The notes under the pieces: generated by a model
Database searches by the model: none
What the model was told of the DNA's origin: nothing
Seen by the model: the letters and a program-made list of their open reading frames with translations, nothing else
Translations under genes and position numbers: made by a program
Shown here: piece after piece, positions 26,751-40,940 of the stretch
Numbering within the stretch: the first letter of the stretch is position 1
How the letters are laid out: the number at the start of each line of letters is the position of its first letter
NCBI GenBank assembly: GCA_040768225.1
Contig: JAXGMZ010000001.1
Coordinates: forward strand, 346,591-410,590
Direction: 5' to 3'
Length of the DNA stretch: 64,000 bases
Source: Evtepia sp.
GTDB lineage: Bacteria; Bacillota; Clostridia; Oscillospirales; Oscillospiraceae

Positions 26751-29693
26751 TTAGGATCGCCCTGCGATGTTTAAAATCTCCTTCTTGACGGAGGCGCGAA
26801 TCCCCCCTATAGAGGCGTTCGGCTTTCCAATGTAATAGCCCTGCAGGTAATCGATGCCCAGCTTGATGACATAGGCAAGATCCTCGGCATCCTCTATGCC
26901 CTCGGCCACTGTTTTGATGTTTTTTGACTTGCAGAAGAAGAGAATGTTCTTCACCAGCATCTGCTTGTCCAAATCCCGGTGGATGCCCTGGATCAGCTCC
27001 ATATCTATTTTTATGACATCGGGTTTCAGGTTGATCACCCGGATTTCGTTGGAATAGCCCTTGCCGAAGTCGTCAATCGCGATGAGCATCCCCTCCGCCC
27101 GGGCGAAGTTAATTTTCTTCTGCATAATTTCAGGCAGCCTGCTCTCTTCCTCTGTGATTTCAAGTGCAATGCGCGGCAGGAGATGTCCATACTCTTTTTT
27201 CAGCGCCGCCCGGCTCTCCCGGCCCACAAGCTGGCTGGGGATGCTGTTGACAAACACCCTTGCCGGGCCGAGGGCCTTAATCTGCTCGTTGATCGTCTTG
27301 AACACGCTGCGGAAGACCAGATCCTCCAGCGCGCCCAGCTTGGACTGCGCCGCGGCAACCGCCAGAATCTCCATCGGCCCTTTGAAGTTCTCCAGATCGG
27401 AGCGCATCAGGGCCTCATAGGCAAACACTTCGCCCGTCTCCACAGCGACGATCGGCTGAAAGACAAACTTAATGCGCGCCTGATCCAAGAGCTGATGGAT
27501 GGCCTCTCGGTTTTCCAGAAGAAATACATTTTTCCGATAGGACTCGATGTCGAATTCATAGAGGGAACCCTTAAAGTTATGCTTCGCCTCGTACATGGCA
27601 AAGTCTGCAAGCTTGAGCAGATCTGTCACATCGTCCGCATCGTCCGGGTACCAGGCGAGGCCCGAAGAAAAGCGAATTTTATGATCCGAGTCATCGGGGA
27701 TTTTAATGCTGTAGCTCTCAAAAGCGAGCAGCTTTTGCTGCAAGAGCTCCCTGACCTCCTCCTTGCTGTCAAAGCCATGCAGGTAGATCGCAAACTCATC
27801 CCCCGATATCCTCGATACAACGCCCCCATACTGCCTAAACTCCCGGAACATCTCACCGGCATGGATGATCAGCTGATCCCCCAGATCGTGCCCAAAGGTA
27901 TCGTTGATGTATTTCAAGTTGTCCAGATCCGAAAACATCAGCACACCCATCTTCTCCGGCCTGCTCCAGATGAGCTCATCCACCTCCCGCTTAAAGGCGG
28001 TGCGGTTGTAGAGCTGCGTGAGGGAGTCGTGATCCAATTCATAGCTCAGGCGAAGGTTTTCGTCGATCTCTTTGGTTGCATCCAGGATCACGCCCACGTA
28101 GCCGTCTCTTGTCCTGCTCTCGATAATCCGCAGCCAATAGTCTGTTTCGCCCTTTGGATTTGGGTATTGATAGATGTTCATGTAGCGATCCGAGGGGTTC
28201 ATCCTCAGCTTGCGAAATGCCTGGTTCCACGCCTCAAAGTCTACAGAAGACCCTTTTTCCAAATCTGTGATCTCATAGATGAAATCCGTCAAGATCACCT
28301 TGTTCTCGATGACCTCAAAGCTCCCGATGGGCAGGAGGGAGAGTTTCAATATCTTCGCTGTCGACTCTGAAGCCTGGATCACGCTTCGGTTGAAGAGCTC
28401 CACGGCCGCTGTCAATTCGTCAATCTCCCTTAGCTTGGTCTTTTGAAACTTAATATCCGAATAAGGGCTTAAGGTTTTCAGATGCTGGGAGAGCGCTCCG
28501 ATCCTTTTGGTCGAGGTGTAGCTCACCAAAATGGAGGCGAGGATAGAGATCATCGTTGTGATGGCAATGCCAAAGATCAGGATAAATCTTATTTTTGCCG
28601 TGCTCTGATGCAGCTCTTCCTTCTGAGTCATGCCGATCAAAGACCAGCTCTCATCATAGAAGGGGGAGTTTTTGCTGTACATATAGATCTCGTAATCCGC
28701 AACATACATATCGCCAAGGCTCTCCAAATGGATCCGGCTGATGTCGGCCCCCTTGACCGGCTCGAGCCAATAGCGTTGGAAGCGCTGCAGGTGGTTTTCC
28801 GCCAGAGGCCCGCTGGGGACAAACCAATCGAAATTCAAGATTCGGTCCCGGATGGGGCTGATGGCGTAGAAGCTATTCTGATAGGCGAGATCTTTATTGG
28901 GCAGGTATTCCTTCGCCAAGTGGCCGGCGGAGATCTCCACCCCGAAGACGCCAAAGGGATTGCCCACCTCGTCCAGCAGCGGCATCGTATACGTAATGAC
29001 AGTCTGTCCGTCGTGCAGGGTGTCGCTCGGCGCGCTCCAGTAGCCGTATCGCTCTATCTCAGACTCCGGAAAGTGCTGCGCCGCCCAGATGGGTTTGCTG
29101 TAAAACTCCCGCTGCTCCCGCTCCCCCAAGTGCATGTGCAGCCTCCAGTTGACGCCCACGGTCATCTTCAATTTTTGCGCCACATAGGAGGGCCCGATCT
29201 CCATCTGGTACATCGACGGGTTTGTGCTGTTGCTGCTTGGCGCAGTGTTGCGTATGTAGACACCCGGGCGGCTCTCCTTGTCCTCCGTCAGGATACCTGG
29301 ACCGCTGAAGAGGAAAAATGCTCCCGTAATATTATTTTCTCGGATGGCACGGATTAAAACCCTCCCCGCTTCTAAAGAGAGCGCGCGGTAGGCCTCGTCG
29401 TGTTCATAGATCTCAAACGGTCCGCTGCCGTAATCCGCCCCGATTTTCTCTGACAAGGCGCTGACCTCTTCGGTATACTGGCCCACATTCTCAACCAGGG
29501 CGCCGATATCGTCATTAAAGTTTTCAACCCTTGACTCCACTGTATTGTTAAAGAGGCGAAAGGCGTTCTCGTCTAAGCGGATGAAGACTTTTGAGAGCGT
29601 GATTGAGGTCACCAAGGCCACGCTTTGCAACAATACCAAGGAGATCATAATAATCAGGATTTGATGACGCAGACTTTTAGTCCCCTTTAACAC
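26751..29693 (-). CDS. Membrane GGDEF/EAL c-di-GMP enzyme with large extracellular sensor
   Basis: Two TMs around about 330 aa; DLDNLKYINDTFGH...SGDEF; EAL, EITE, DDFGKGYS, EGIE, LQGY. Confidence 0.92.
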   Translation of the reverse strand: MLKGTKSLRHQILIIMISLVLLQSVALVTSITLSKVFIRLDENAFRLFNNTVESRVENFNDDIGALVENVGQYTEEVSALSEKIGADYGSGPFEIYEHDEAYRALSLEAGRVLIRAIRENNITGAFFLFSGPGILTEDKESRPGVYIRNTAPSSNSTNPSMYQMEIGPSYVAQKLKMTVGVNWRLHMHLGEREQREFYSKPIWAAQHFPESEIERYGYWSAPSDTLHDGQTVITYTMPLLDEVGNPFGVFGVEISAGHLAKEYLPNKDLAYQNSFYAISPIRDRILNFDWFVPSGPLAENHLQRFQRYWLEPVKGADISRIHLESLGDMYVADYEIYMYSKNSPFYDESWSLIGMTQKEELHQSTAKIRFILIFGIAITTMISILASILVSYTSTKRIGALSQHLKTLSPYSDIKFQKTKLREIDELTAAVELFNRSVIQASESTAKILKLSLLPIGSFEVIENKVILTDFIYEITDLEKGSSVDFEAWNQAFRKLRMNPSDRYMNIYQYPNPKGETDYWLRIIESRTRDGYVGVILDATKEIDENLRLSYELDHDSLTQLYNRTAFKREVDELIWSRPEKMGVLMFSDLDNLKYINDTFGHDLGDQLIIHAGEMFREFRQYGGVVSRISGDEFAIYLHGFDSKEEVRELLQQKLLAFESYSIKIPDDSDHKIRFSSGLAWYPDDADDVTDLLKLADFAMYEAKHNFKGSLYEFDIESYRKNVFLLENREAIHQLLDQARIKFVFQPIVAVETGEVFAYEALMRSDLENFKGPMEILAVAAAQSKLGALEDLVFRSVFKTINEQIKALGPARVFVNSIPSQLVGRESRAALKKEYGHLLPRIALEITEEESRLPEIMQKKINFARAEGMLIAIDDFGKGYSNEIRVINLKPDVIKIDMELIQGIHRDLDKQMLVKNILFFCKSKNIKTVAEGIEDAEDLAYVIKLGIDYLQGYYIGKPNASIGGIRASVKKEILNIAGRS

Positions 29694-29751: not shown

Positions 29752-31233
29752 TTATTCGACTGAATATGGGATCTTTTCCGCCTCCAGGCTAAGCTTCAGG
29801 CGCTCCAGCCAGTTTTCAACGTACTCCTCCATGCCGAGCGCCGCTAAGATCTCTTCCTCGCTCTCATAGTCTGCCTTGAGTACGTCAACCCGCTCTCTCA
29901 GTTCGCTTGCAAGATCCATCAGGCTTGCTTCCAGCAGTTTGCGAAGCTGATAGCTTTTGTCAAAGGGCTTGGCCGCATAGGTGTTGGCTTCAAGGATTTG
30001 AGTCATCACAATTTCATAGACGGCCGCCACGTTTCTATCGCGCTTTTCTCCCGCTTTCAGCTTCTCAATCGCCTTGCCGAATTCGTCACTTTCGAAGGAC
30101 TTCGTCTGCACGGGCAAATAGCCCGTTGTCATGGCAAAGTCAATATTTTGCTCCCTGTCTGTGAACCATTTCAAAAAGATCGCGGAGGCAAGCTCTCTCT
30201 CCGGCGTAGAGCGGGCAATGCACATGCCCGCGCCCTGCTGCACAGCGAAGGGCTCTCCCGCTTCAAATTTGGGATAGCTGAGCGCCTTAAAGTCAATGGC
30301 CGCCTCAATGTTATTCTGCTCTACCCAGGTGGGGAAATAGGCCGCGCCCGAAGAGGAGCCCACATAGGAGATGAGCTCTCTGGCCTTGATGTCGTCGGAG
30401 CGGAACTTGCCGACCGCGTCAAAATAGCCCATGCCGATTCCCAGCCCATAGATTTCAAACAGCTTTCCTAGTGTCTCTCTGTGCAGGAGCGCTTTTTGCT
30501 GTTCGCCATCGATGATATCAATCCCCATCTGCTTGTTCCCTACGATGATATAGTTGGCAACGGAATCAAAGCCCATAAAGGCCTTTCCGGACCAGGGGCC
30601 CTCCCCCGTCTGCTCCGCTGTCCAGTGATAGTAACTGCGGGCCGTGTCCAACACCCCTTCCCAGGTGGCTAAGCTCTCTATGTTCTGCCCCGTTGCCGCT
30701 TCAAACTCATTCCACGCCGTCTCGTTGAGATAGAAAAGCTCCGTGCTCTTGACAACGGGGATTAGCAAGAGCCTGCCGCCTTCAAAAACCCCGTCCTTCA
30801 GAAAGCCCTCCACGTACAGCGCCTGCTCTTCTTCTGTAAAGTATTGATTCAGATCGACCAGCATACCGAGTTTGTCGATCTCTTCCGCCTTGTCCGGATA
30901 GGTGGAGAAGAGATCGGGCATCTCTTTGGAATTGATCACACCCTTGGCCGACTCCGACACGGCCTCCTCCAACTCCCCAATGTTGCCCATCCCCAGCGCA
31001 TCGACAATGATCCCTTTCTCGATGCCGATGCTGCGGTTAAATTCCGAGATTGCCCGATCCAGAGCAACCTTGTTCTCCCCCACGTAATAGTGCCATAGGC
31101 TGACCGTTATCGGGTTCTTCGGGTCCAAAACCGTTTCCGCCCTGTTGCTCAAATCAGAATCCCCGCCGCAGGCCGTGAGTGTCAGCAGCGCTGCAAGGAA
31201 CACAACCGCCATGATTCTCTTTGCCATCACCAT
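29752..31233 (-). CDS. Extracellular solute-binding lipoprotein (family 1, sugar-type)
   Basis: Lipobox TLTACG; VSLWHYY, LLIPVVKSTELFYLN, FLKWFT, TTGYLPV. Confidence 0.88.
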   Translation of the reverse strand: MVMAKRIMAVVFLAALLTLTACGGDSDLSNRAETVLDPKNPITVSLWHYYVGENKVALDRAISEFNRSIGIEKGIIVDALGMGNIGELEEAVSESAKGVINSKEMPDLFSTYPDKAEEIDKLGMLVDLNQYFTEEEQALYVEGFLKDGVFEGGRLLLIPVVKSTELFYLNETAWNEFEAATGQNIESLATWEGVLDTARSYYHWTAEQTGEGPWSGKAFMGFDSVANYIIVGNKQMGIDIIDGEQQKALLHRETLGKLFEIYGLGIGMGYFDAVGKFRSDDIKARELISYVGSSSGAAYFPTWVEQNNIEAAIDFKALSYPKFEAGEPFAVQQGAGMCIARSTPERELASAIFLKWFTDREQNIDFAMTTGYLPVQTKSFESDEFGKAIEKLKAGEKRDRNVAAVYEIVMTQILEANTYAAKPFDKSYQLRKLLEASLMDLASELRERVDVLKADYESEEEILAALGMEEYVENWLERLKLSLEAEKIPYSVE

Positions 31234-31612
31234 GTCCCTCCTGAGTGTTTATTGTGAAGATCTCTTTTTCTCGCTTGTTCTCTTTACTAAATCTGTCGAT
31301 TGGGATAATGGCACACCCATCAATTACTTATCGACCCCTTGCAAGCCTTTGTTAATGGCTTTATCTGTAAAAATGTTTGCCCCGGCTCCCCCGCTTGCCC
31401 CGGAAGCCGCTTTTCCAGGGCGGTCACCACTTTTTCACCCGGAATGTCCGCCTCTTTTCTCCCTGCCTATCCGCAGGGTCAATCCGGCAGGCGTGCGCGG
31501 AAGCGCGCTTCTGTGTGCAGCCGGCGCGTATTTTTTATTTTGAGTTTTTGGCGATTTCATTTGCATTTTATGTTACAATGGGGATCAATCGACAGAAGGA
31601 GGTTGATAAACG

Positions 31613-32578
31613 ATGGCCTTGGTGAAAACGGATGCATCCGCAAGATTATTTGGCAGGATGAGTGTGGCGCATGGCTGCTACATCGCCCAGGGGGCGATCC
31701 TGCGCTCCATAGACGGTGCGATAGAGATCAAAAACAACTCTTGGGTGCTGGAAAACTCCGTCCTCATCGGCAGTCCCGCCCACCCCTTACGGGTGGGGCA
31801 AAAGACTGTCTTTGGACACCAGTGCCTGGTGATCGGGGCCAGCATTGGAAACCTTTGTGAAATTGGCAACAAAGTGATCATAGAAGAGGGCGCGCAAATT
31901 GGAGACCTGTGCATCTTTGGCGAGGGGAGTTTGATCCCCAAGCACATGGTGATCCCCTCCGGCTCTGTGGTTGTGGGAAGACCGGGCCGCATCCTCCGGA
32001 CGCTCAGCCCGGAGGATAAGGAGATGATCCGGAGAATGCGGGGAGGGGATCTCTCCCTGGCAGATCACCAAGAACACATCATCGAAGGGAAGCGTGAGAA
32101 CATGGGAACGCTGTATCCATTTCAAGACAAGTATCCCCAAGTCGCCGAAACAGCATATCTATATGACAGCGCTGAGGTGACGGGGGAGGTTCAAATCGGC
32201 GAACACTCCGTCATCGGCGCGGGTGTGAAAATTATTGGCAATTCCCATGGCCCGGTCAAGATCGGAGCACATGTCCACATCCTTGAGAACACAGTTCTCC
32301 ACCTGCTGCCGGACAACCAGCTGATCATAGAAGACTATGTCACCATAGGCCCGGGCTGCGTCATCCATGGGACGACCATCGGCGCCCACTCCGTTGTCGA
32401 ATCGGGGGCGATTGTCTGCGACTATAGCCGCCTGGGTCAAAACACCCTGGTGAAATCCGGCTCCCTGGTTCCCCAGAGAAGCATCTTTTCCGATCACCTC
32501 GTCTTAGAGGGCTTCCCCGCAAAGGAAATTGGCCGGCTGGAGCAAATCTTAGAGCGGCCGGCCTGGGCCTTTTTGTAG
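31613..32578 (+). CDS. Tandem two-domain gamma-carbonic-anhydrase-like (left-handed beta-helix) protein
   Basis: Hexapeptide repeats; two YrdA/CaiE-like units, each ending in G.P.(R/K)..(R)L. Confidence 0.85.
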   Translation: MALVKTDASARLFGRMSVAHGCYIAQGAILRSIDGAIEIKNNSWVLENSVLIGSPAHPLRVGQKTVFGHQCLVIGASIGNLCEIGNKVIIEEGAQIGDLCIFGEGSLIPKHMVIPSGSVVVGRPGRILRTLSPEDKEMIRRMRGGDLSLADHQEHIIEGKRENMGTLYPFQDKYPQVAETAYLYDSAEVTGEVQIGEHSVIGAGVKIIGNSHGPVKIGAHVHILENTVLHLLPDNQLIIEDYVTIGPGCVIHGTTIGAHSVVESGAIVCDYSRLGQNTLVKSGSLVPQRSIFSDHLVLEGFPAKEIGRLEQILERPAWAFL

Positions 32579-32746: not shown

Positions 32747-34183
32747 GTGAAAAACGCTCAGCAGCGACTGCTCTCCATCTTCCTGGCTGTCTTTTTTGCC
32801 CTTTGCCTCACCCCGCTTGTTCCCCTGCCGGCAAACGCGGCCGCCCAGGGGATCGACATCTATCTCAACGGGGAAGAGCTCAACATTCCGCCAAGCTTCG
32901 GCAGCCCATTCTACGACCAGAACGGGCGGCTTCAAATACCCATGCGATATATTATCCAATCCTGCGGCTATGACGTGCTGTGGAATCATGCGGATCGCAG
33001 TGTTACGGTCCCCGTCAAGAGCGGAAATGTTGTCATCAAAACAGACTCAACTATCATGATCACTCCAGCCGGCGAGGTCATCATGGACACCAGCGCCATG
33101 ATAAAGGACAGCAGAACCTACATCCCCCTGCGCTTTGCCTTAGAGGCCCTGGGCTTTGAAGTCAACTGGGCTGCCGGGCCTTTCGCCGACCGGGTTGATA
33201 TTACCGGCCAGATTGGCGCAGCCTCCAAGCGCGTTCCCATGACGGCAGCGGATGTCTCAGATTTGGCCTCGCCCGCTACATTTTTTATTGAGGTATCCGG
33301 GCTTGATGAACTTGCCTTTTCGGGCGGCAGCGGATTTTTTATCGACCCGTCGGGGGTTGGCGTTACCAATTACCACGTGATTGAGGGTGCCACCAGGGCT
33401 ACCATTACCACCATTGACGGGGCAAGCTATGACATGGGCATGATTCTATACTATGACACAGAGCGTGATCTCGCCGTGTTTAATGTGATCCCGACGCAGC
33501 CGTCCAGCAAAAAAATCGACGTTCCCTACTTGAACCTGGCCGTTTCCAGCAGCATTCGCAATGGCGACGTGGTCTATGCGATCGGCAGCCCGCTGGGCCT
33601 TCAAAACTCAATCACCGACGGCATTGTCAGCAACAAGGACAGAACGCTGCCGGGCTCTGCACAGTCCTTCATTCAAACATCCGCGCCGATTTCACCCGGC
33701 AACAGCGGCGGCCCCTTGCTCAACCAATACGGTGAGGTGATCGGCGTGACCACCGCAAGCTTAACAGACGGGCAAAACCTAAATCTTGCGATTCCGGTGG
33801 GAGAGCTCGCGGCTGTCAACTATCAGGATCAATCAAGCTGGATGTTCCTCTCTCAGGTCTATGAGGCGGAGAGCAAGATCCTTCCACCCACAAACATTCG
33901 GGTGGTGAAAACCAATTCAGACACCGCGTTTATCCAATGGGATCCCGTAGAGGACGCCGACTACTATCACCTCTATTACAAGCAGTCCTGGGAGGATACA
34001 TACTGGTACGATGGCGATGACGACAGCGACGGCCCCCTGCGCTTTTACTGGTATCCGGAATACTCTGTTGAATACTCCGGCCTTGTTGCAGGAAACACCT
34101 ATCATATCATCATGACCTCTGTGAAGGATGGCGTGGAGTCTGCCGACAGCAAGGTCTTCATCTTCACCTTCCGCGGCTCTTAA
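32747..34183 (+). CDS. Stalk (Cu-amine-oxidase-N-like) + trypsin-like serine protease + FN3-like surface protein
   Basis: TYIPLRFALEALG stalk; TNYHV, DLAV, GNSGGPL catalytic triad; no PDZ. Confidence 0.88.
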   Translation: MKNAQQRLLSIFLAVFFALCLTPLVPLPANAAAQGIDIYLNGEELNIPPSFGSPFYDQNGRLQIPMRYIIQSCGYDVLWNHADRSVTVPVKSGNVVIKTDSTIMITPAGEVIMDTSAMIKDSRTYIPLRFALEALGFEVNWAAGPFADRVDITGQIGAASKRVPMTAADVSDLASPATFFIEVSGLDELAFSGGSGFFIDPSGVGVTNYHVIEGATRATITTIDGASYDMGMILYYDTERDLAVFNVIPTQPSSKKIDVPYLNLAVSSSIRNGDVVYAIGSPLGLQNSITDGIVSNKDRTLPGSAQSFIQTSAPISPGNSGGPLLNQYGEVIGVTTASLTDGQNLNLAIPVGELAAVNYQDQSSWMFLSQVYEAESKILPPTNIRVVKTNSDTAFIQWDPVEDADYYHLYYKQSWEDTYWYDGDDDSDGPLRFYWYPEYSVEYSGLVAGNTYHIIMTSVKDGVESADSKVFIFTFRGS

Positions 34184-34341: not shown

Positions 34342-37300
34342 TTAGGGGTTGCTGATTCTGAAGGGGGTGAATGCCGAGCTGACAAAGGCGATAATTTTAC
34401 CTGTGGAATCATAGACAAGAATCTGCATATAGCCGCCCTGATCAATTACGGCGAAGGGGTTGGAGGAATCCAGATCGCTCTCGCTTCCGGTGTCAACAAA
34501 GAGCACCGTGGCGGCGGGAGCCTGCGTGGCGGCATCTGCCGGGCACCTGAGCATCCCCGATGCGGAGTCATAGCTTCCGCTAAAGGTATAGCCGAGGGAT
34601 GGGATGGACAGGCTGACCGTGCCGGTCGCTTTATTCGCCGTCAAATTCAGCTTGCCTGTTGATTGGGTGACGCCTGTTTTACCGGGTATGTAGCTTTGAA
34701 TGGTTGCGCTAAATTCACCGGATGATTTCTCAAGCAGCTCGGCGCTCGGCAGCTTAAGCCCGGTTTTTTTGACGGCGCTTACCTTGAGCGAGTAGAGCCA
34801 GGGAACTTGACTCTTGTTCACCACCATGACAAGCAGGTCGTGCAAGCCGACAGGCACCGTCACCGTACCGTCCTTACCCGTATAGGTTTTGACACAGGTA
34901 TTGCCCTGCATGAGCATTGCCACCACGTAGGTGTCCTTGCTGCCCGTGCTGATGACGTATTCAGAGTCAACGGGGGTGTTAAGGGGCTGCAGATACACAA
35001 ATCTGGCACCGAAAGCGGGAATGGTCAGGCTGCTTGAGGCGGTGCCGTAGCTAGAGAAGTCGTAGTTCAGATTGCTGCGGATGCTGTCAAAATCACTATT
35101 TGAGATGATGGATCCGGCAGAGAGGGAGGCATGAGAGACCAGCTTGTTGCCGGTGACATACATCTCAAAGAAGGGCCCTGCCATGTCATAAATATTCTTG
35201 CCGATTACCTTCTCAATATTGAATGGCGCCCAGTCGTGGACAAAGGTGGTGCCTCCGGCCGCGTAGGCCGCGCGGATATAGTTTGCGTCGCTGCTCGCCT
35301 GCTCCTGCAAATACTGTATCACCGGCAGGCGGGCATAGCCGTTCTCCGCGCTATAAAAATTGAACACCGTGGCAAAGCTTGGGATGAATCCATCAAACAC
35401 GCGCATATGGTGGAGACCGTAGTTCGAGGGGATATCGCCGCTGAATTTGTATTCATAGTAGCTTGCGGTTGCCTCGTCGAACCAGAGCGCGCCGAAGGTG
35501 GGATCCACGTAGCAATTCTGAATGAAGTGGAAAACTTCATGGACCATCGTGCTGTAAATCTGTTTGTTTACGGTTTTGGAGCTGTAGCCGTGTTTGAACA
35601 GCTTCGCATTGAGCTGGATTGTGCCTCCATTGAGCGTCCACCCGGAGATATAAACGCCGTCCTGCCCTGCCTTTTTGGCGCCCTCTTCCACGGCCATTTT
35701 TGTAATGAAGATCTCAAAGGGCCAGTCGCTGCGGGCGCTGGTCTCAAAGCCAAGCCGGCGGTATTCGGCTATAATCCCATTGATATCTACAAGGAATTGG
35801 GCCGCAGCGCTTTTCGTCAGTTCCTTATCCGTAAGGCTGGCGTAGACTTTGAAAGAACCCAGATTGGGGTCGAAGAAAAACTGAAGTTCTTTGGCCTGAA
35901 CAAGGAACTGAAAGCCGATGGCTTCCAGGCGCTTGAGGTCTCCCCCTCCCCCCGTTCCGGCGGGGCGCGCCATCTCTACAAACTCACTGTAGTTCGCAAG
36001 GTCAAGATTGCTGACGGTGGCATATCCCCCTGAGACAGTAGCGCGAACGGGCTTGAAGAGCACGCCCTTGTTGCCGCTCTCGGTTTTGTATTCAACACCG
36101 AGGAAGAGGAAGGTCTCCGTGTTCTCGGCGCCGGAGGGATTGCGGTTGAGCTTGACGGACAGCGTGATGGGCTCCTTTGGTATTTCGCTCAGCGCGATGC
36201 GGCTGCAAGAGGAGAGGGCATCGGGGTCTGAGGAATAGCCGTCATAGGAGATGCTCTGGCCGCCGCGCACCGTGACCGTGCCTGCGGAAGATGCGCCAAA
36301 ACCCAGCTTCACATCGCCCGCGATGACAGTCCCTTTGGCGGGAACGGGCTTGCCCTCCTCCACCCCGGCAGAGGGCGCATCTGCCAGCTTGTTTGCCATC
36401 CGCACAGCCAAGGCCAGCGCCTGTTCGGCGCTCGCTTTTTCAGCGGGGGCAAAGCGGTTGCCCCCCACACCATTGATCACCTCATTGGCGACCATGAAAT
36501 ATACGCTCTCACTTGCCCAGGAGGAAATCAGGTAGTTGTCCGCAAAGAGAGAGGGTCTTGTGTATGTCAATGAATGGTTTCCGTCCGTGGGCAGTGTCCA
36601 GCCGGGGATGGCATAGCGCTTATAGGCCCGGGTGAGCATGGTGGCCATCTGCTCCCTGTCGAGGATTGCTGCGGGAGAAAAGCTCGTCGCCCCCGTGCCG
36701 TTTACAATGCCAAGATGATAGGCCTTGATCACCTCGGGATCGGATGTGTCGTGGAAGGGGTTGGATCCGGCGGCCGCCTTGCTTCCGGAAAGGTATTCAT
36801 AAATTTTGACGGATACAGCGGCAAAATCGGCGCGGCTGATGGGTTTTCTCAGGTCAGCTTTTAAGAGCCTGTCAGGAATCAGCCCCTTTGCCAGCGCATC
36901 CGCAAGCTCCGCCGTTGCCCAGGGGGAGTTGATATATCCCTCTGCCCCAGAGGGAGGGAGAGGTTCCTCTCTCCCGGGCGGGGGGGTGTTCCCACCTGTC
37001 CCGGCGGCTGTTTCATAGCCCCGAATGTTGAAAAAACCGCAGCTGTCCGAGGCCTCGTTGTAGGACCAGCTTTCCATATCAGAGGGGAGGAGATAGTAAG
37101 CCCCGGGGGGCAATTCAAGGTTGGGGAAGATGTCCCAATAGGCGTTGGGCACATCTCTGTAGCCCATTCGCCCCTGCGCGGCATAGCTTCCCAGCAGCTC
37201 TCCGAATTCATTGTAGATGCTGATCGTGCCGGGGGCCTTCCCTCTGGCGCTGTTCCAGTGATAGGTCGTTGCCGACTGGATCAGGACGGTCTTTGAAACT

Positions 37301-37482
37301 TCAAACTGCAGGTAGTACGGCGGATCGTTGTATACAGTGTTGGTGTTCTCATTGGAATACAGCAGCTCATAATCATCCACATGCACGGCGCCGGCAGAGA
37401 GCCCGGGCAAGATGGGCAGGGCTCCCAGCAGGAAGCAAAGCGCAAGTGCAAGGGTTGAACTGCGTTGAAAGAATCTTTTCAT
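34342..37482 (-). CDS. Secreted SLH-containing putative zinc metallopeptidase
   Basis: Signal peptide; central SLH repeats (ISRADFAA, LDREQMATML); VHEVFH plus downstream WFDEATA (gluzincin-like). Confidence 0.8.
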   Translation of the reverse strand: MKRFFQRSSTLALALCFLLGALPILPGLSAGAVHVDDYELLYSNENTNTVYNDPPYYLQFEVSKTVLIQSATTYHWNSARGKAPGTISIYNEFGELLGSYAAQGRMGYRDVPNAYWDIFPNLELPPGAYYLLPSDMESWSYNEASDSCGFFNIRGYETAAGTGGNTPPPGREEPLPPSGAEGYINSPWATAELADALAKGLIPDRLLKADLRKPISRADFAAVSVKIYEYLSGSKAAAGSNPFHDTSDPEVIKAYHLGIVNGTGATSFSPAAILDREQMATMLTRAYKRYAIPGWTLPTDGNHSLTYTRPSLFADNYLISSWASESVYFMVANEVINGVGGNRFAPAEKASAEQALALAVRMANKLADAPSAGVEEGKPVPAKGTVIAGDVKLGFGASSAGTVTVRGGQSISYDGYSSDPDALSSCSRIALSEIPKEPITLSVKLNRNPSGAENTETFLFLGVEYKTESGNKGVLFKPVRATVSGGYATVSNLDLANYSEFVEMARPAGTGGGGDLKRLEAIGFQFLVQAKELQFFFDPNLGSFKVYASLTDKELTKSAAAQFLVDINGIIAEYRRLGFETSARSDWPFEIFITKMAVEEGAKKAGQDGVYISGWTLNGGTIQLNAKLFKHGYSSKTVNKQIYSTMVHEVFHFIQNCYVDPTFGALWFDEATASYYEYKFSGDIPSNYGLHHMRVFDGFIPSFATVFNFYSAENGYARLPVIQYLQEQASSDANYIRAAYAAGGTTFVHDWAPFNIEKVIGKNIYDMAGPFFEMYVTGNKLVSHASLSAGSIISNSDFDSIRSNLNYDFSSYGTASSSLTIPAFGARFVYLQPLNTPVDSEYVISTGSKDTYVVAMLMQGNTCVKTYTGKDGTVTVPVGLHDLLVMVVNKSQVPWLYSLKVSAVKKTGLKLPSAELLEKSSGEFSATIQSYIPGKTGVTQSTGKLNLTANKATGTVSLSIPSLGYTFSGSYDSASGMLRCPADAATQAPAATVLFVDTGSESDLDSSNPFAVIDQGGYMQILVYDSTGKIIAFVSSAFTPFRISNP

Positions 37483-38110: not shown

Positions 38111-40940
38111 TCACTTCCACCCATCAAAGCTGTGCAGCACCGCCGCGACCTGCGCGCGCGTGGCATCGCCCTGCGGCGTGAGTTTCCCCTCGCTGCCCTG
38201 CATCAAACCCGCTCCGCAGGCCCACTGCAGCGCCGCAATGGCGTATTCGGAGATGTCGAAGGCATCCTCATAGGAGAGAATATTGCTCTCCTCGCCCAGA
38301 GATACATCATAGCCCTTCTGCTGCGCGTAGCGGTGGAGAATCGCCGCCATCTGCTCGCGGGTGATCGAATCATTCGGCCCGAAGCCAGCGCCCCCGTAGC
38401 CGCTCACAATCCCATGTTCCGCCGCCCAAGCCACAGCTTCGGCATACCACGCGCCGGGGCTCACATCGGAGAACGCAGCCGCGCCGGCGGCTTCCGGACT
38501 GCCCTCCATCCGCCAGAGCACCGTGACGAGCATGCCGCGCGTCATGCCGAGATCGGGGCTGAAGATCGCCTCCGCCGTGCCCGTCATCAGGCCGCGCAGG
38601 GCGACATACGCGATGTCTTCGCTCGCCCAGTGCGCCGCCGTGTCGCTAAAGTTTGGAGCTTCCCTGTAGCCGATGCCGAAGCTTGAGAAGTGGCCGGTGT
38701 CAAAGAAGAGCGTCTGGGCAGTTTGGCTGTAGCTGGAATTCCAAAGCCACGCCACAGCGCCCGCCCCGTCCACATAGACAGCGAAGAGGCCGCCCGGATG
38801 TTCGCCCTCGGCGGGGGCATAGGGCAGGGAGAGCGCAATCCGGCCGCCGCCGAACTCCGTGATCGCCCGCGCCCCATCAGAGATGGAGAGCCGGTAGAAG
38901 GGGCGGGAGCCGAGGGCAAGTTTTGCCGCGCCCGCAAGGCCCGCCGGGTCAATCCGCTCGGCGGAGATGGTGATCTCTTCGCCCATGTTCCGTAAAATCG
39001 TTTGCAGCGTCTGCAAGTCCAGCGAGAGGGAAATCTGCGGCGTTTTGATCTCTAAATAGCGCACGCCCGCCGCCGTCAAGGCCTGATAGACCCCCCGGCT
39101 GAGGGTCAGGGGCAGGCTGTTAAACTGCGTTTGCAGCCCCGAGAGGTCGATGGAGACGGCGAGGCCGTTTCCATCGCTGCCCGCGCTGGCTGCCAGCGCC
39201 GCGTCGATGGCGCTTTTTACATCCTGCTCTGTGACCCTTACGCTGGCGATGCCGCTCGCGTCCACTGTTGCGGCGGGTGTGACGCTGCCCACGGCGGGCG
39301 GGTTCGGCTGCTCCGGGGTGGGCAGCGGCGTGGCGGCGGTGATGCTGCTGCCGGTGCTGCTGCTCCCGCTCCCTCCGCCGCCTCCGCCGCTAGAGCGGGG
39401 GATTTCTGTCCACTGGGCGTAGAGGGTCATATCTGATGTGACGGTATCCTTTGCAAAATCCCAAACTTCGGCGAATGCTGCATCTTTATACCAAGCGGAA
39501 AAGCTATACCCGTCTCTGGTCGGGTCATCGGGTTTTGTGATAGTTTGCCCATGGGAGATGATAGCTTCAGGAACTGCGCTGCCGCCCTTGACATCAAAGG
39601 TCACGGTGTAGGAATTGAGTGTCCACTGGGCGTAGAGCGTATGGTTTTCGGTCACGGTGACGACGGTAGCCGAAGTAACCTTATCACCGCCCTCGTCAGC
39701 GGTGAACCAGCCGTTAAATGTATAGCCCTCGCGGGTGGGGGTCGGAAGATCGCCGTAGGGATCGCCACTGACGACGGGCTGGGATTCCGGAAACACCGTG
39801 CCGCCCTTGGCATCAAAGGACAGGGTATGACTGGTCTTAAGAATAGGATACGCTACATTAGATAAATTTGTCCAGTTGAGATAATTGTTTGGTGTGGCCT
39901 GTGCCTGCACCCAGTCGTTGAGCGCAGCACAGAGGGTGCCTGTTTTGGTATTTGCGCCAATTGTATAGGAAAAATCGCTCTCCGTGCCCTTGCCCTGTGC
40001 TTCTGTAAATTTTTCGTAGTTTGTGACATTGTTTCCGTTGCCGCCACTCCCGCTAGCAACGCTCGCCGCTGTATTGAGCCAGTAGCAATTGGTCATCGTG
40101 CCACCATTGCTCCTTCCTAGAAGGCCGCCGGCGTCGCTGCTTGCAGTCACCGCGCCTGTGTTATAGCAGTTTGTAACCGTACAGTTATCAGCAATATATC
40201 CCACAAGGCCGCCGGCAAAGCTAACATCGCCGCCGTTTGCCGTCACCGTGTCTGTGTTGTAGCAGTTGGTCACCGTGCTGTCATTTTTAGTATATCCCAC
40301 AACGCCGCCGGCATAGTTTTTTTCCCCCATTGCTTGCAGCCACAGTGCCCATGGTGTTATAGCAGTTCTTCACTGTACCTTCGTTTAGCCCGACAAGGCC
40401 GCCTGCATAAGCTCTTGCACCACCGGTAGCGCTACTTGCGCCTTGGTAGTTGCAGTTGATTATCTTGCCGGTATTAGTATTAAATCCTGCGATGCCGCCA
40501 GCATAATTATCGTCGCTGCCGCTGGCGCTTACGCTGCCCGAAACTGAAAGGTTTTGCACAGTACCTTTCAAAAGCCCGAACAACCCAGCGAAATCAGTGT
40601 TTTTTACCGTCATATTACTGATGCTGTATCCGTCGCCGTCAAATGTGCCGGAAAAATTGCCCATCGGCGTCCAAAGATAGCCGCTCAGGTCGATATTTGC
40701 CGTGAGGGTGACGGTGTTACCGGAAAGAGAATTGTTTTTATCGACCACCTTTGTCAGCCACGCCAGCCCCTCGGCGCTGGAGATGGTGACATCGCCGCTG
40801 CCCTCATCGACAACATACCCATCTGGCTTTTCCGTGACATATTCCGTCCACGTTTCCGGATCCGCCGCCCAGGCCGCCATCGGCAGCAGGGCGAGCAGCA
40901 TGCAGGCCGCCAGCAGGGTGGATAATACTCGTTTTTTCAT
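38111..40940 (-). pseudogene. GLUG-repeat + InlB-B-repeat + SLH adhesin-like protein, frameshifted
   Basis: ORFs 40287-40940 and 38111-40330 join (ASNGGKNYAGG) if one base is removed from the GGGGG-AAAAAAA tract at 40317-40328; YAGG..G.N GLUG motifs; PTREGYTFNGW and PTRDGYSFSAWY repeats; C-terminal SLH domains. Confidence 0.85.

Follow-up and report, generated by a model that had tools for sequence, protein, structure and literature searches.

Proteins of the gamma-carbonic-anhydrase (gamma-CA) fold are textbook symmetric homotrimers with three identical interface sites. To our knowledge, the only well-described asymmetric case is the module of eukaryotic complex I, which is built from separate subunits, and we know of no clear function for many other members of the superfamily, such as YrdA, CaiE and the CamH-type proteins. 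Here, we describe a gene on the forward strand of a 64,000-nucleotide stretch of contig JAXGMZ010000001.1 of Evtepia sp. (this whole stretch is called the window below), whose product is an uncharacterised two-domain member of the gamma-CA (left-handed beta-helix, LbH) superfamily. Its two domains divide between them the metal ligands of one gamma-CA site, which would probably be completed at their junction. A duplicated and degenerated CA domain is also found in CsoSCA, the beta-CA of alpha-carboxysomes, which has one active site per pseudo-dimer; unlike the window protein, however, CsoSCA has the beta-CA fold and keeps all the ligands in one copy and none in the other.

The metal site of homotrimeric gamma-CAs lies between two beta-helices, one of which contributes two His and the other a single one; in Cam, the pair is His81 and His122 of one monomer, His117 is supplied by its neighbour, and a role for Asn73 and Gln75 beside the metal-bound water has been described (PMC4519908). 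Additionally, a salt bridge links adjacent monomers, with Arg59 on one and Asp76 on the other, and active trimeric gamma-CAs tolerate Glu in place of this Asp (PMC12635333). In the complex I of Arabidopsis, the sole live site is formed by CA1-H130, CA2-H107 and CA2-H135, with N99, Q101 and D102 supplied by CA1 (the His117-type donor) and R86 by CA2 (PMC8290278). Two faces can thus be distinguished in each domain: a two-His face, with the positions of Arg59, Glu62, His81 and His122, and a one-His face, with those of Asn73, Gln75, Asp76 and His117.

The gene is a complete open reading frame (ORF) with an ATG start that codes for 321 amino acids (aa) plus stop. Its features, with the alignments, Protein Data Bank (PDB) matches, conservation or AlphaFold2 (AF2) model on which each rests, are the following:

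31596..31603, + strand: Shine-Dalgarno (SD) sequence AAGGAGGT of the annotated start codon, 10 nucleotides (nt) upstream of the ATG (sequence; anti-SD duplex energy -13.4 kcal/mol)
31613..32578, + strand: tandem gamma-CA-fold (LbH) protein (ORF list, Pfam, NCBIfam, PDB, AF2)
31613..32101, + strand: domain 1 (D1), residues 1-163 (alignments to 9rmq, 1v3w and 4n27; DSSP on the AF2 model)
31703..31705, + strand: D1 Arg31, at the Cam Arg59 position (alignment; conserved in at least 90%)
31742..31753, + strand: D1 Trp44-Val45-Leu46-Glu47, at the Cam Asn73-x-Gln75-Asp76 positions (alignments, conservation)
31766..31768, + strand: D1 Ile52, at the first His (His81) position (PDB and D1-versus-D2 alignments)
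31817..31819, + strand: D1 His69, at the His117-type ligand position, the sole one kept in D1 (120/120; invariant in both clades)
31832..31834, + strand: D1 Ile74, at the third His (His122) position (PDB and D1-versus-D2 alignments)
32102..32575, + strand: domain 2 (D2), residues 164-321, full-length gamma-CA type (PDB alignments, AF2)
32237..32248, + strand: D2 Gly209-Asn210-Ser211-His212, with Gly at the Arg59 position and His at the Cam Glu62 position
32282..32287, + strand: D2 Leu224-Glu225, at the Gln75-Asp76 positions, on the predicted metal-free face (conservation)
32300..32302, + strand: D2 His230, at the His81-type ligand position (120/120; invariant in both clades)
32351..32353, + strand: D2 Pro247, at the middle His (His117) position (120/120; variable in the Peptoniphilus-type clade)
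32366..32368, + strand: D2 His252, at the His122-type ligand position (120/120; invariant in both clades)
D1 faces: two-His face R31, I52, I74; one-His face W44, L46, E47, H69
D2 faces: two-His face G209, H212, H230, H252; one-His face H222, L224, E225, P247

The alignments to solved structures place Ile52 of D1 at the first His position ('VLENSVLI' pairs with 'VQDGSVMH'), while 'FGHQCLVIG' pairs with 'VGHNAMLHG', which leaves His69 as the middle His and Ile74 at the third position. In D2, 'ILENTVLH' and 'IGPGCVIHG' pair with 'IQDNSILH' and 'VGHQVILHS', so that His230 and His252 are kept and Pro247 replaces the middle His. The same pairs (I52/H230, H69/P247 and I74/H252) are obtained without any outside reference when D1 is compared with D2 by BLASTP (24% identity, E = 3e-9). 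Thus, the three-His set of a canonical protomer (His81, His117, His122) is present in neither domain and is complete only as the union of both. An earlier reading of this DNA, made from the sequence alone (the sequence-only reading), had described a tandem with such a complementary split and had taken from Cam the premise that two ligands come from one subunit and the third from its neighbour; the first is correct in every detail and the second agrees with the published site (PMC4519908).

The assignment of both halves to this fold is supported by several comparisons. Phmmer searches against the PDB placed the two halves on solved gamma-CAs (9jyw, 3vnp, 1xhd, 9qev, 9rmq, 1v3w and YrdA, 3tio; E 1e-29 to 1e-18), and the matches 1kqa and 3srt span only the last coils. 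D2 aligns from residue 1-4 of 3vnp, 9jyw and 1xhd and ends in a short C-terminal tail, RPxWA. D1, by contrast with canonical gamma-CAs, lacks their first ~20 residues (the alignments to 9rmq, 1v3w and 4n27 start at about residue 20 of these chains), shows no N-terminal extension, and includes a helix (133-142) and a linker in the DSSP assignment of the AF2 model. This model, built with 119 homologues, has for the whole chain a predicted local distance difference test (pLDDT) of 95 and a predicted template-modelling score (pTM) of 0.92, the latter of which implies a defined packing of D1 against D2. A left-handed parallel beta-helix followed by a C-terminal helix is seen in both halves, the helix of D2 being truncated. 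In Foldseek searches against the PDB, each half superposes on gamma-CAs with a root-mean-square deviation (rmsd) of 0.7-1.3 A over ~150 columns and 30-35% identity, and one-domain comparisons with 9qev, 1xhd, 7zw9 and 6ive give target-normalised template-modelling (TM) scores of 0.82-0.85 and rmsd of 0.7-0.9 A. Only single-domain gamma-CAs were found there (query-normalised TM ~0.45), with no two-domain or long continuous-helix match. Among profiles, Pfam sees only hexapeptide repeats across the gene product (Hexapep, 1.7e-22), and the best NCBIfam model is that of the Gram-positive gamma-CAs (NF050158, 1.9e-49, over two stretches), whose curated cutoff of 250 bits is not reached (167.6).

The split is not a peculiarity of this genome. 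A search over 5.8 billion proteins returned 1702 relatives, of which the best 120 (59-100% identity) were used to count conservation. These 120 come from Tissierellia, Clostridia, Gudongella and Desulfitobacterium, and all are full-length tandems of 320-331 aa, except one of 367 aa and one of 401 aa that is merged with an HxlR-type regulator (the metagenomic P0114, a single gene call). H69, H230, P247, H252 and L46 are each present in 120/120 and E47, L224 and E225 each in 119/120, while positions 52 and 74 are aliphatic throughout, bar one Asn; G209 and H212 are invariant in 119 sequences. An exhaustive search of 50%-identity representatives, followed by mapping with per-domain hidden Markov models, showed the same ligand split in every intact member of the main clade down to ~45% identity. 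A second, Peptoniphilus-type clade (P0131, P0132 and P0271-P0273, from Peptoniphilus and relatives) comprises proteins of 307-310 aa with ~40% identity to the window protein. In 14 sequences of both clades, down to 40% identity, 37 columns are invariant, mostly Gly or Pro, and they include H69, H230 and H252; H212 is found in 13 of the 14. Consequently, the pattern of split ligands is far beyond chance, and the conservation in homologues that the sequence-only reading had named as a check was found in all 120 relatives and persists in the 40%-identity clade. In a set of one genome per species, relatives occur in 294 of 185,579 genomes, and the best 80 of these 294 are nearly all anaerobic Bacillota, including Negativicutes, plus one Desulfogranum; among the cultivable carriers are Sporomusa malonica, Sedimentibacter hydroxybenzoicus and Desulfitobacterium sp. 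PCE1.

The residues that surround the ligands have also diverged, and differently in each domain. The Gln-Asp pair of gamma-CAs is L46-E47 in D1 and L224-E225 in D2, and the Asn73/Gln75 hydrogen-bond network is absent from both, as these positions hold W44/L46 in D1 and H222/L224 in D2. At the Arg59 and Asp76 positions there are R31 and E47 in D1, and G209 and E225 in D2; the Arg59 equivalent has therefore been lost in D2 only. Arg31 does not vary in the main clade; its predicted partner in a salt bridge is Glu225, at a metal-free interface, and, judging from these residues, this would be the only heterotypic pairing of the Arg59-Asp76 type able to form. By contrast, Trp44-Val45-Leu46-Glu47 of D1 would form the second shell of the composite site, if D1 is taken as the His117-type donor by analogy with CA1 of complex I (PMC8290278). 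An ungapped alignment (IRGDVAPTVIG versus IGNSHGPVKIG) places His212 at the Cam Glu62 position, and from this position and its co-conservation we infer that it may lie inside the composite site. A literature search for the subunit origin of Glu62 found nothing.

As neither domain keeps all three His, a complete metal site can form only where D1 and D2 meet, and we consider it likely that it does form at this heterotypic junction. D1 and D2 would lie against each other as adjacent protomers do in a gamma-CA trimer, and His230 and His252 from D2, together with His69 from D1, would hold a single composite centre occupied by Zn2+ or, in these anaerobes, Fe2+. The junction between the two-His face of D2 and the one-His face of D1 would thus bring together the three ligand His, His212 and a Glu47 that lacks its partner, with Leu46 and Trp44 as the lining. 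Alignment and conservation show how remodelled these surroundings are: Gly209 stands for Arg59, His212 occupies the Glu62 position, Leu46 and Trp44 replace Gln75 and Asn73, and Glu47 of D1 occupies the Asp76 position with its Arg partner gone. The opposite faces (Arg31, Ile52 and Ile74 of D1; Leu224, Glu225 and Pro247 of D2) look like a metal-free structural interface that keeps an Arg-Glu bridge; there, the Arg31-Glu225 pair and a hydrophobic plug of I52, I74 and P247 would take the place of the metal.

The Peptoniphilus-type clade separates these two interfaces. It retains H69, H212, H230, H252 and G209, with E47 in 4/5 members and Leu46 in 3/5, while positions 31, 52, 74, 224, 225 and 247 are variable and mostly charged; Arg31 is lost, and position 31 is Asp or Leu. 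Selection thus acts on a single heterotypic interface in this clade, namely that which would carry the complete site.

A second tandem family, from betaproteobacteria (Burkholderiaceae, Rubrivivax), shows the ligand split in the reverse domain order, with 27% identity to the window protein. In the set formed by P0258 and P0278-P0396 (118 analysed, 340-350 aa), domain 1 keeps H122 in 118/118 and H81 in 98/118, has a His at the Glu62 position in 95/118, and has lost His117 and Arg59 (Ala in 96/118). Domain 2, in turn, holds N73, Q75, D76 and H117 in all 118 and has lost His81 and His122. At the other interface, the charges have changed places: the Asp76 position of domain 1 holds Arg and the Arg59 position of domain 2 holds Asp, each in 107/118, which looks like negative design against homotypic pairing. 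There are, however, 20 of the 118 that deviate in domain 1, as they keep Arg59, carry Ile instead of His81 and lack the His at the Glu62 position. Both families therefore have a two-domain chain, a complementary ligand split, a conserved second heterotypic interface and a two-His donor that lacks Arg59 and carries a His at the Glu62 position; they differ in the order of the domains, in the canonical shell, which is kept only in betaproteobacteria, and in the swapped charges of the second salt bridge. Given the 27% identity, the betaproteobacterial split probably had an independent origin. As the canonical Asn73/Gln75/Asp76 shell is kept there, CO2 hydration is plausible in that family, which is itself uncharacterised and recorded as 'gamma carbonic anhydrase family protein'. 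Taken together, the face-specific conservation and the reversed betaproteobacterial split strongly support a composite site at the heterotypic junction, the only place where the sequence-only reading had expected it.

Some observations do not fit this picture so well and must be counted against it. The charge swap of P0131 (Asp at 31, Lys at 225) is not general in its five-member clade, and several peripheral relatives depart from the pattern: the third His of D2 is missing from P0229 and P0240, P0126 carries Asn at 212 and Ala at 225, and none of the six ligand positions is a His in P0142. Moreover, the AF2 scores do not tell which of the two possible interfaces lies within the chain, nor the His-His distances.

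Compared with homotrimeric gamma-CAs such as Cam and the CamH-type proteins (3vnp, 9jyw, 1xhd, 9qev and YrdA, 3tio), the window protein has the same fold, but it consists of two diverged domains in one chain and would have at most one complete site per D1-D2 pair, whereas there are three per trimer in the former. It also carries Leu for Gln75, Trp for Asn73, Arg59 in D1 only and a new His at the Glu62 position. A further likeness is to the gammaCA/gammaCAL module of complex I, a heteromeric trimer with one full His3 metal interface and the others degenerate (PMC8290278), a comparison that was already drawn in the sequence-only reading and is apt as regards the logic of the sequence. The differences are nevertheless clear: complex I subunits are separate gene products with N-terminal amphipathic helices that anchor them to the membrane arm, and they keep Gln, Asp and Arg at the live site, while the window protein is a soluble bacterial fusion, a single chain without extension rather than a set of separate anchored subunits, in which degeneration is strictly complementary between the partners, and its gene shows no respiratory-complex context in the window or at the homologous loci. 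Finally, PaaY and CaiE also share the gamma-CA fold and serve functions beyond CO2 hydration, but each is a homotrimer of single-domain chains whose gene belongs to a paa or cai operon. A full-text literature search turned up no relevant work on tandem, fused or duplicated gamma-CA proteins. The fold and the interface-metal principle are known; the fused, complementary single-site architecture and the probable second product of the gene are new.

The second product is suggested by two features at the boundary between the domains:

32084..32099, + strand: purine-rich SD-like stretch GAAGGGAAGCGTGAGA upstream of codon 164 (anti-SD energy -8.3 kcal/mol)
32102..32104, + strand: codon 164 (ATG), the first codon of D2 and candidate internal start of a free 158-aa product (conservation)

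The ORF thus contains a conserved in-frame start codon with an SD-like ribosome-binding site ahead of it. Met164 varies in very few sequences and, in the alignments, pairs with the initiator Met of Gram-positive gamma-CAs (residue 2 of 3vnp). In 80 non-identical loci, in which the 21 nt upstream were paired with the 16S anti-SD, codon 164 is ATG in 74 and GTG in five, and the remaining locus has an ATG one codon away; all five replacements of Met by Val use GTG, although this codon represents 21% of the Val codons in these genes. The mean anti-SD energy before codon 164 is -10.66 kcal/mol, which is the strongest site within the gene and on a par with the annotated starts (-10.04); the gene-wide mean is -3.8 (standard deviation (sd) 1.66), and the next unrelated site has -6.56. 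When the peptide was kept and synonymous codons were redrawn, the mean z before codon 164 was -1.48, against 0.04 (sd 0.19) at 75 control positions, and 57% of the loci fell in the lowest decile. The typical internal motif is AAGGAAGGTGAAAAA-ATG, and a lineage with 67-68% G+C retains the signal (cAGGAGGcactccccATG; cAGGAGGcactcccc-ATG). This SD-like signal outdoes every other in the gene and is preserved at synonymous sites; free D2 is therefore probably made as well, and we rate its translation from codon 164 as somewhat better than an even proposition. There is a precedent in CcmM, a gamma-CA-containing gene with an internally initiated second product (M58/M35, PMC7059596). However, the short product of this beta-carboxysome protein, M35, consists of RbcS-like repeats and not of a gamma-CA domain, while the short product proposed here would be the second LbH domain and is predicted only.

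Two facts call for caution: the internal SD of the window (-8.3) is weaker than the family mean and than its own true start (-13.4), and the SD statistics are not wholly independent, because the loci are related by descent. Moreover, the internal SD-ATG could be a relic of the fusion, or a site of ribosome pausing that lets D1 fold first, with the 321-aa protein as the only product. D2 begins exactly at the canonical start of Gram-positive gamma-CAs, as would be expected after the fusion of two genes, and the peptide Lys-Glu-Gly-Glu partly forces an SD-like sequence. By contrast, only at this position is the signal stronger than the synonymous null (z -1.48 versus 0.04 +/- 0.19), Met is always replaced through GTG, and lineages of low and of high GC retain the signal at a protein identity of 55-60%, a divergence at which a neutral relic would be expected to have decayed. 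We consequently give this explanation a substantial chance, around one in three.

If free D2 is indeed made, it might have a place in the assembly. A single chain can form no more than one of the two heterotypic interfaces, and closing a trimer therefore requires a further domain; no third LbH gene was found near the locus in the window or in the homologous loci. Free D2, translated from the same mRNA, could fill the third place and give a D1-D2 + D2 pseudo-trimer with a single complete active site. The Peptoniphilus-type clade lacks Met164, the SD (-2.8) and the RPxWA tail, and it also lacks the constraint on the second interface; this joint loss favours the reading of a two-product trimer, in which, for the main clade, free D2 would take the third position through the conserved second interface, the Peptoniphilus-type proteins being plain pseudo-dimers. 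Even so, we propose the D1-D2 + D2 trimer only tentatively. The complete scheme, in which one mRNA would give two polypeptides (D1-D2 and free D2) that form an obligatorily asymmetric pseudo-trimer with one four-His/Glu metal centre that does not act on CO2, in a design evolved at least twice (Bacillota and Betaproteobacteria) and with negative design enforcing heterotypic pairing, is rather unlikely to hold in all its parts.

In the two bacterial families, two copies appear to have been fused on separate occasions and the ligand set shared out between them, which leaves the heterotypic interface as the only possible active site; these proteins thus offer a natural, genetically compact system in which to study transitions from symmetric to asymmetric oligomeric enzymes. 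They would also provide a case of internal translation initiation that could fix subunit stoichiometry, and a candidate new activity in the superfamily. If it proves true, the two-polypeptide pseudo-trimer would be an unrecognised, recurrent route from symmetric homotrimers to asymmetric enzymes with a single site. In any case, the analysis corrects the current database names, as public records label the homologues 'DapH/DapD/GlmU-related' or 'carbonic anhydrase/acetyltransferase'.

As to the reaction, the combination of three His with a further His where Cam has Glu62, a carboxylate without partner and a hydrophobic lining instead of Gln75 and Asn73 points to a hydratase or hydrolase that depends on metal and probably prefers a substrate other than CO2. 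The site would perform metal-hydroxide or general-base chemistry on another substrate, or hydrate CO2 poorly, and we regard an activity other than CO2 hydration as an evenly balanced question. The sequence-only reading had doubted CO2 hydration because the Gln-Asp pair is Leu-Glu in both domains. The doubt stands, as the change of Gln75 to Leu, with that of Asn73 to Trp, makes efficient hydration doubtful, but part of the argument does not: the change of Asp to Glu is tolerated (PMC12635333) and alone would not abolish CA activity, and only L46 and E47 of D1 belong to the composite site, not the pair of D2. Some residual CA activity is therefore possible. It weighs against any more precise assignment that the genomic context gives no clue to the substrate in 80 loci: the gene is monocistronic and lies in variable neighbourhoods, and its most frequent neighbours (a small GNAT in 11/80, a nitroreductase in 10/80, pirin in 6 and a PNPOx-like protein in 6) recur too irregularly for a pathway to be assigned.

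An acyl-CoA-dependent enzyme, either a PaaY-like thioesterase or a hexapeptide acyltransferase, in which one or more of the conserved His would act as an interface general base and not as a metal ligand, has been considered as an alternative. It would fit the public names of the DapH/DapD/GlmU type, the hydrophobic second shell of Leu46 and Trp44, the small GNAT neighbours and the second-best NCBIfam match (PaaY, 2.7e-31), after which NeuD, LacA, Maa and WbbJ follow more weakly. All these matches are, however, far under their curated cutoffs (108.8 versus 319.6 bits for PaaY, 65.1 versus 305 for CaiE, and at most 65 bits versus 160-720 for the acyltransferase models LacA, Maa, DapH, GlmU and NeuD). 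In addition, the best matches in sequence and structure are true gamma-CAs, the conserved His fall exactly on the three metal-ligand positions, and no paa, cai or sugar-biosynthesis context was found in the window or at the homologous loci. We therefore judge this alternative unlikely.

Even less probable, in our opinion, is a non-catalytic scaffold or adaptor like gammaCAL, CcmN or dynactin p25/p27, where both LbH domains would make up a module resembling a heterodimer and the His would be structural or the metal would serve stability only. The DCTN5 and eIF2B LbH profiles of Pfam do match D1, dynactin p25/p27 chains are among the PDB matches, the gamma-CA module of Polytomella complex I is entirely inactive (PMC8290278), and P0142 has lost all six ligand positions; against this, four His, Glu47 and Gly209 are conserved across clades to 40% identity while the nearby surface drifts, and the betaproteobacterial family keeps the full Asn73/Gln75/Asp76 shell on its donor face.

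A segregated assembly, in which three chains would form a D1 homotrimer (Arg31-Glu47 bridges and a lone His69) and a D2 homotrimer with two-His sites (H230/H252, perhaps with H212 or E225), agrees with the usual C3 symmetry of the fold and with the presence of both Arg31 and Glu47 in D1, which could pair homotypically as in Cam, but is very improbable, as it leaves the invariance of His69 in a hydrophobic pocket without explanation, would set Asp against Asp in a betaproteobacterial domain-2 homotrimer, conflicts with the direct D1-D2 packing implied by the AF2 pTM, and does not account for the Peptoniphilus-type clade, where the D1 face opposite the conserved one is charged and variable, with Asp or Leu for Arg31.

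Other architectures occur among the relatives. P0141 (514 aa), P0157 (826 aa) and P0186 (466 aa) have three gamma-CA-type domains per chain, with ligand sets that are partly degenerate (e.g., HSH / RHH / HHH in P0141), and are possibly single-chain pseudo-trimers, while P0122 (626 aa) and P0129 (482 aa) carry N-terminal extensions of ~220-300 residues before the tandem module. Candidates for naturally split genes, P0137 (D2 only) and P0151 (D1 only), were rejected, as they are broken copies of the fused gene, interrupted by frameshifts in L086 (2440-3530) and by an in-frame stop in L087 (2990-4030), both from the 67-68% G+C lineage; they are either pseudogenes or assembly errors.

Regarding the surroundings of the homologues, the gene of Desulfitobacterium sp. 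PCE1 has an HxlR-type regulator 20 nt ahead of it on its own strand (L001 5645-5980, 7734-8060), in a vicinity that also has a second HxlR and nitroreductase, pirin, GNAT and TetR genes. This vicinity and the merged P0114 give hints of a link to electrophile or redox stress, which is not general. Immediately downstream of the Sporomusa malonica homologue there is a group II intron (D1-D4-6; L051 6165-6396), and a c-di-GMP-I riboswitch is found 1.5 kb upstream of that of Dendrosporobacter (L048 3357-3442), where it probably serves another gene.

In the window itself, the neighbours between 23301 and 40330 are cell-envelope and signalling genes, unrelated to the tandem protein:

26751-29693, - strand: 980-aa GGDEF-EAL protein
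29752-31233, - strand: ABC solute-binding protein
32747-34183, + strand: trypsin-like protease with a Cu_amine_oxidN1 domain
34342-37482 and 38111-40330, - strand: SLH-domain proteins

Neither the window nor the region ahead of the gene in 13 homologous loci yielded a riboswitch or leader RNA. At 31493-31540, the + strand has two hairpins that resemble terminators, with a T-run behind them, ~75-120 nt upstream of the gene start and within a 380-nt divergent intergenic region; they have no Rfam match and could be a leader/attenuator or the terminator of an unannotated transcript. Finally, the G+C content of the window is ~0.60-0.64 in the first 12 kb and 0.43-0.53 beyond 44 kb, which suggests that its right-hand part is a compositional mosaic, possibly of acquired DNA.

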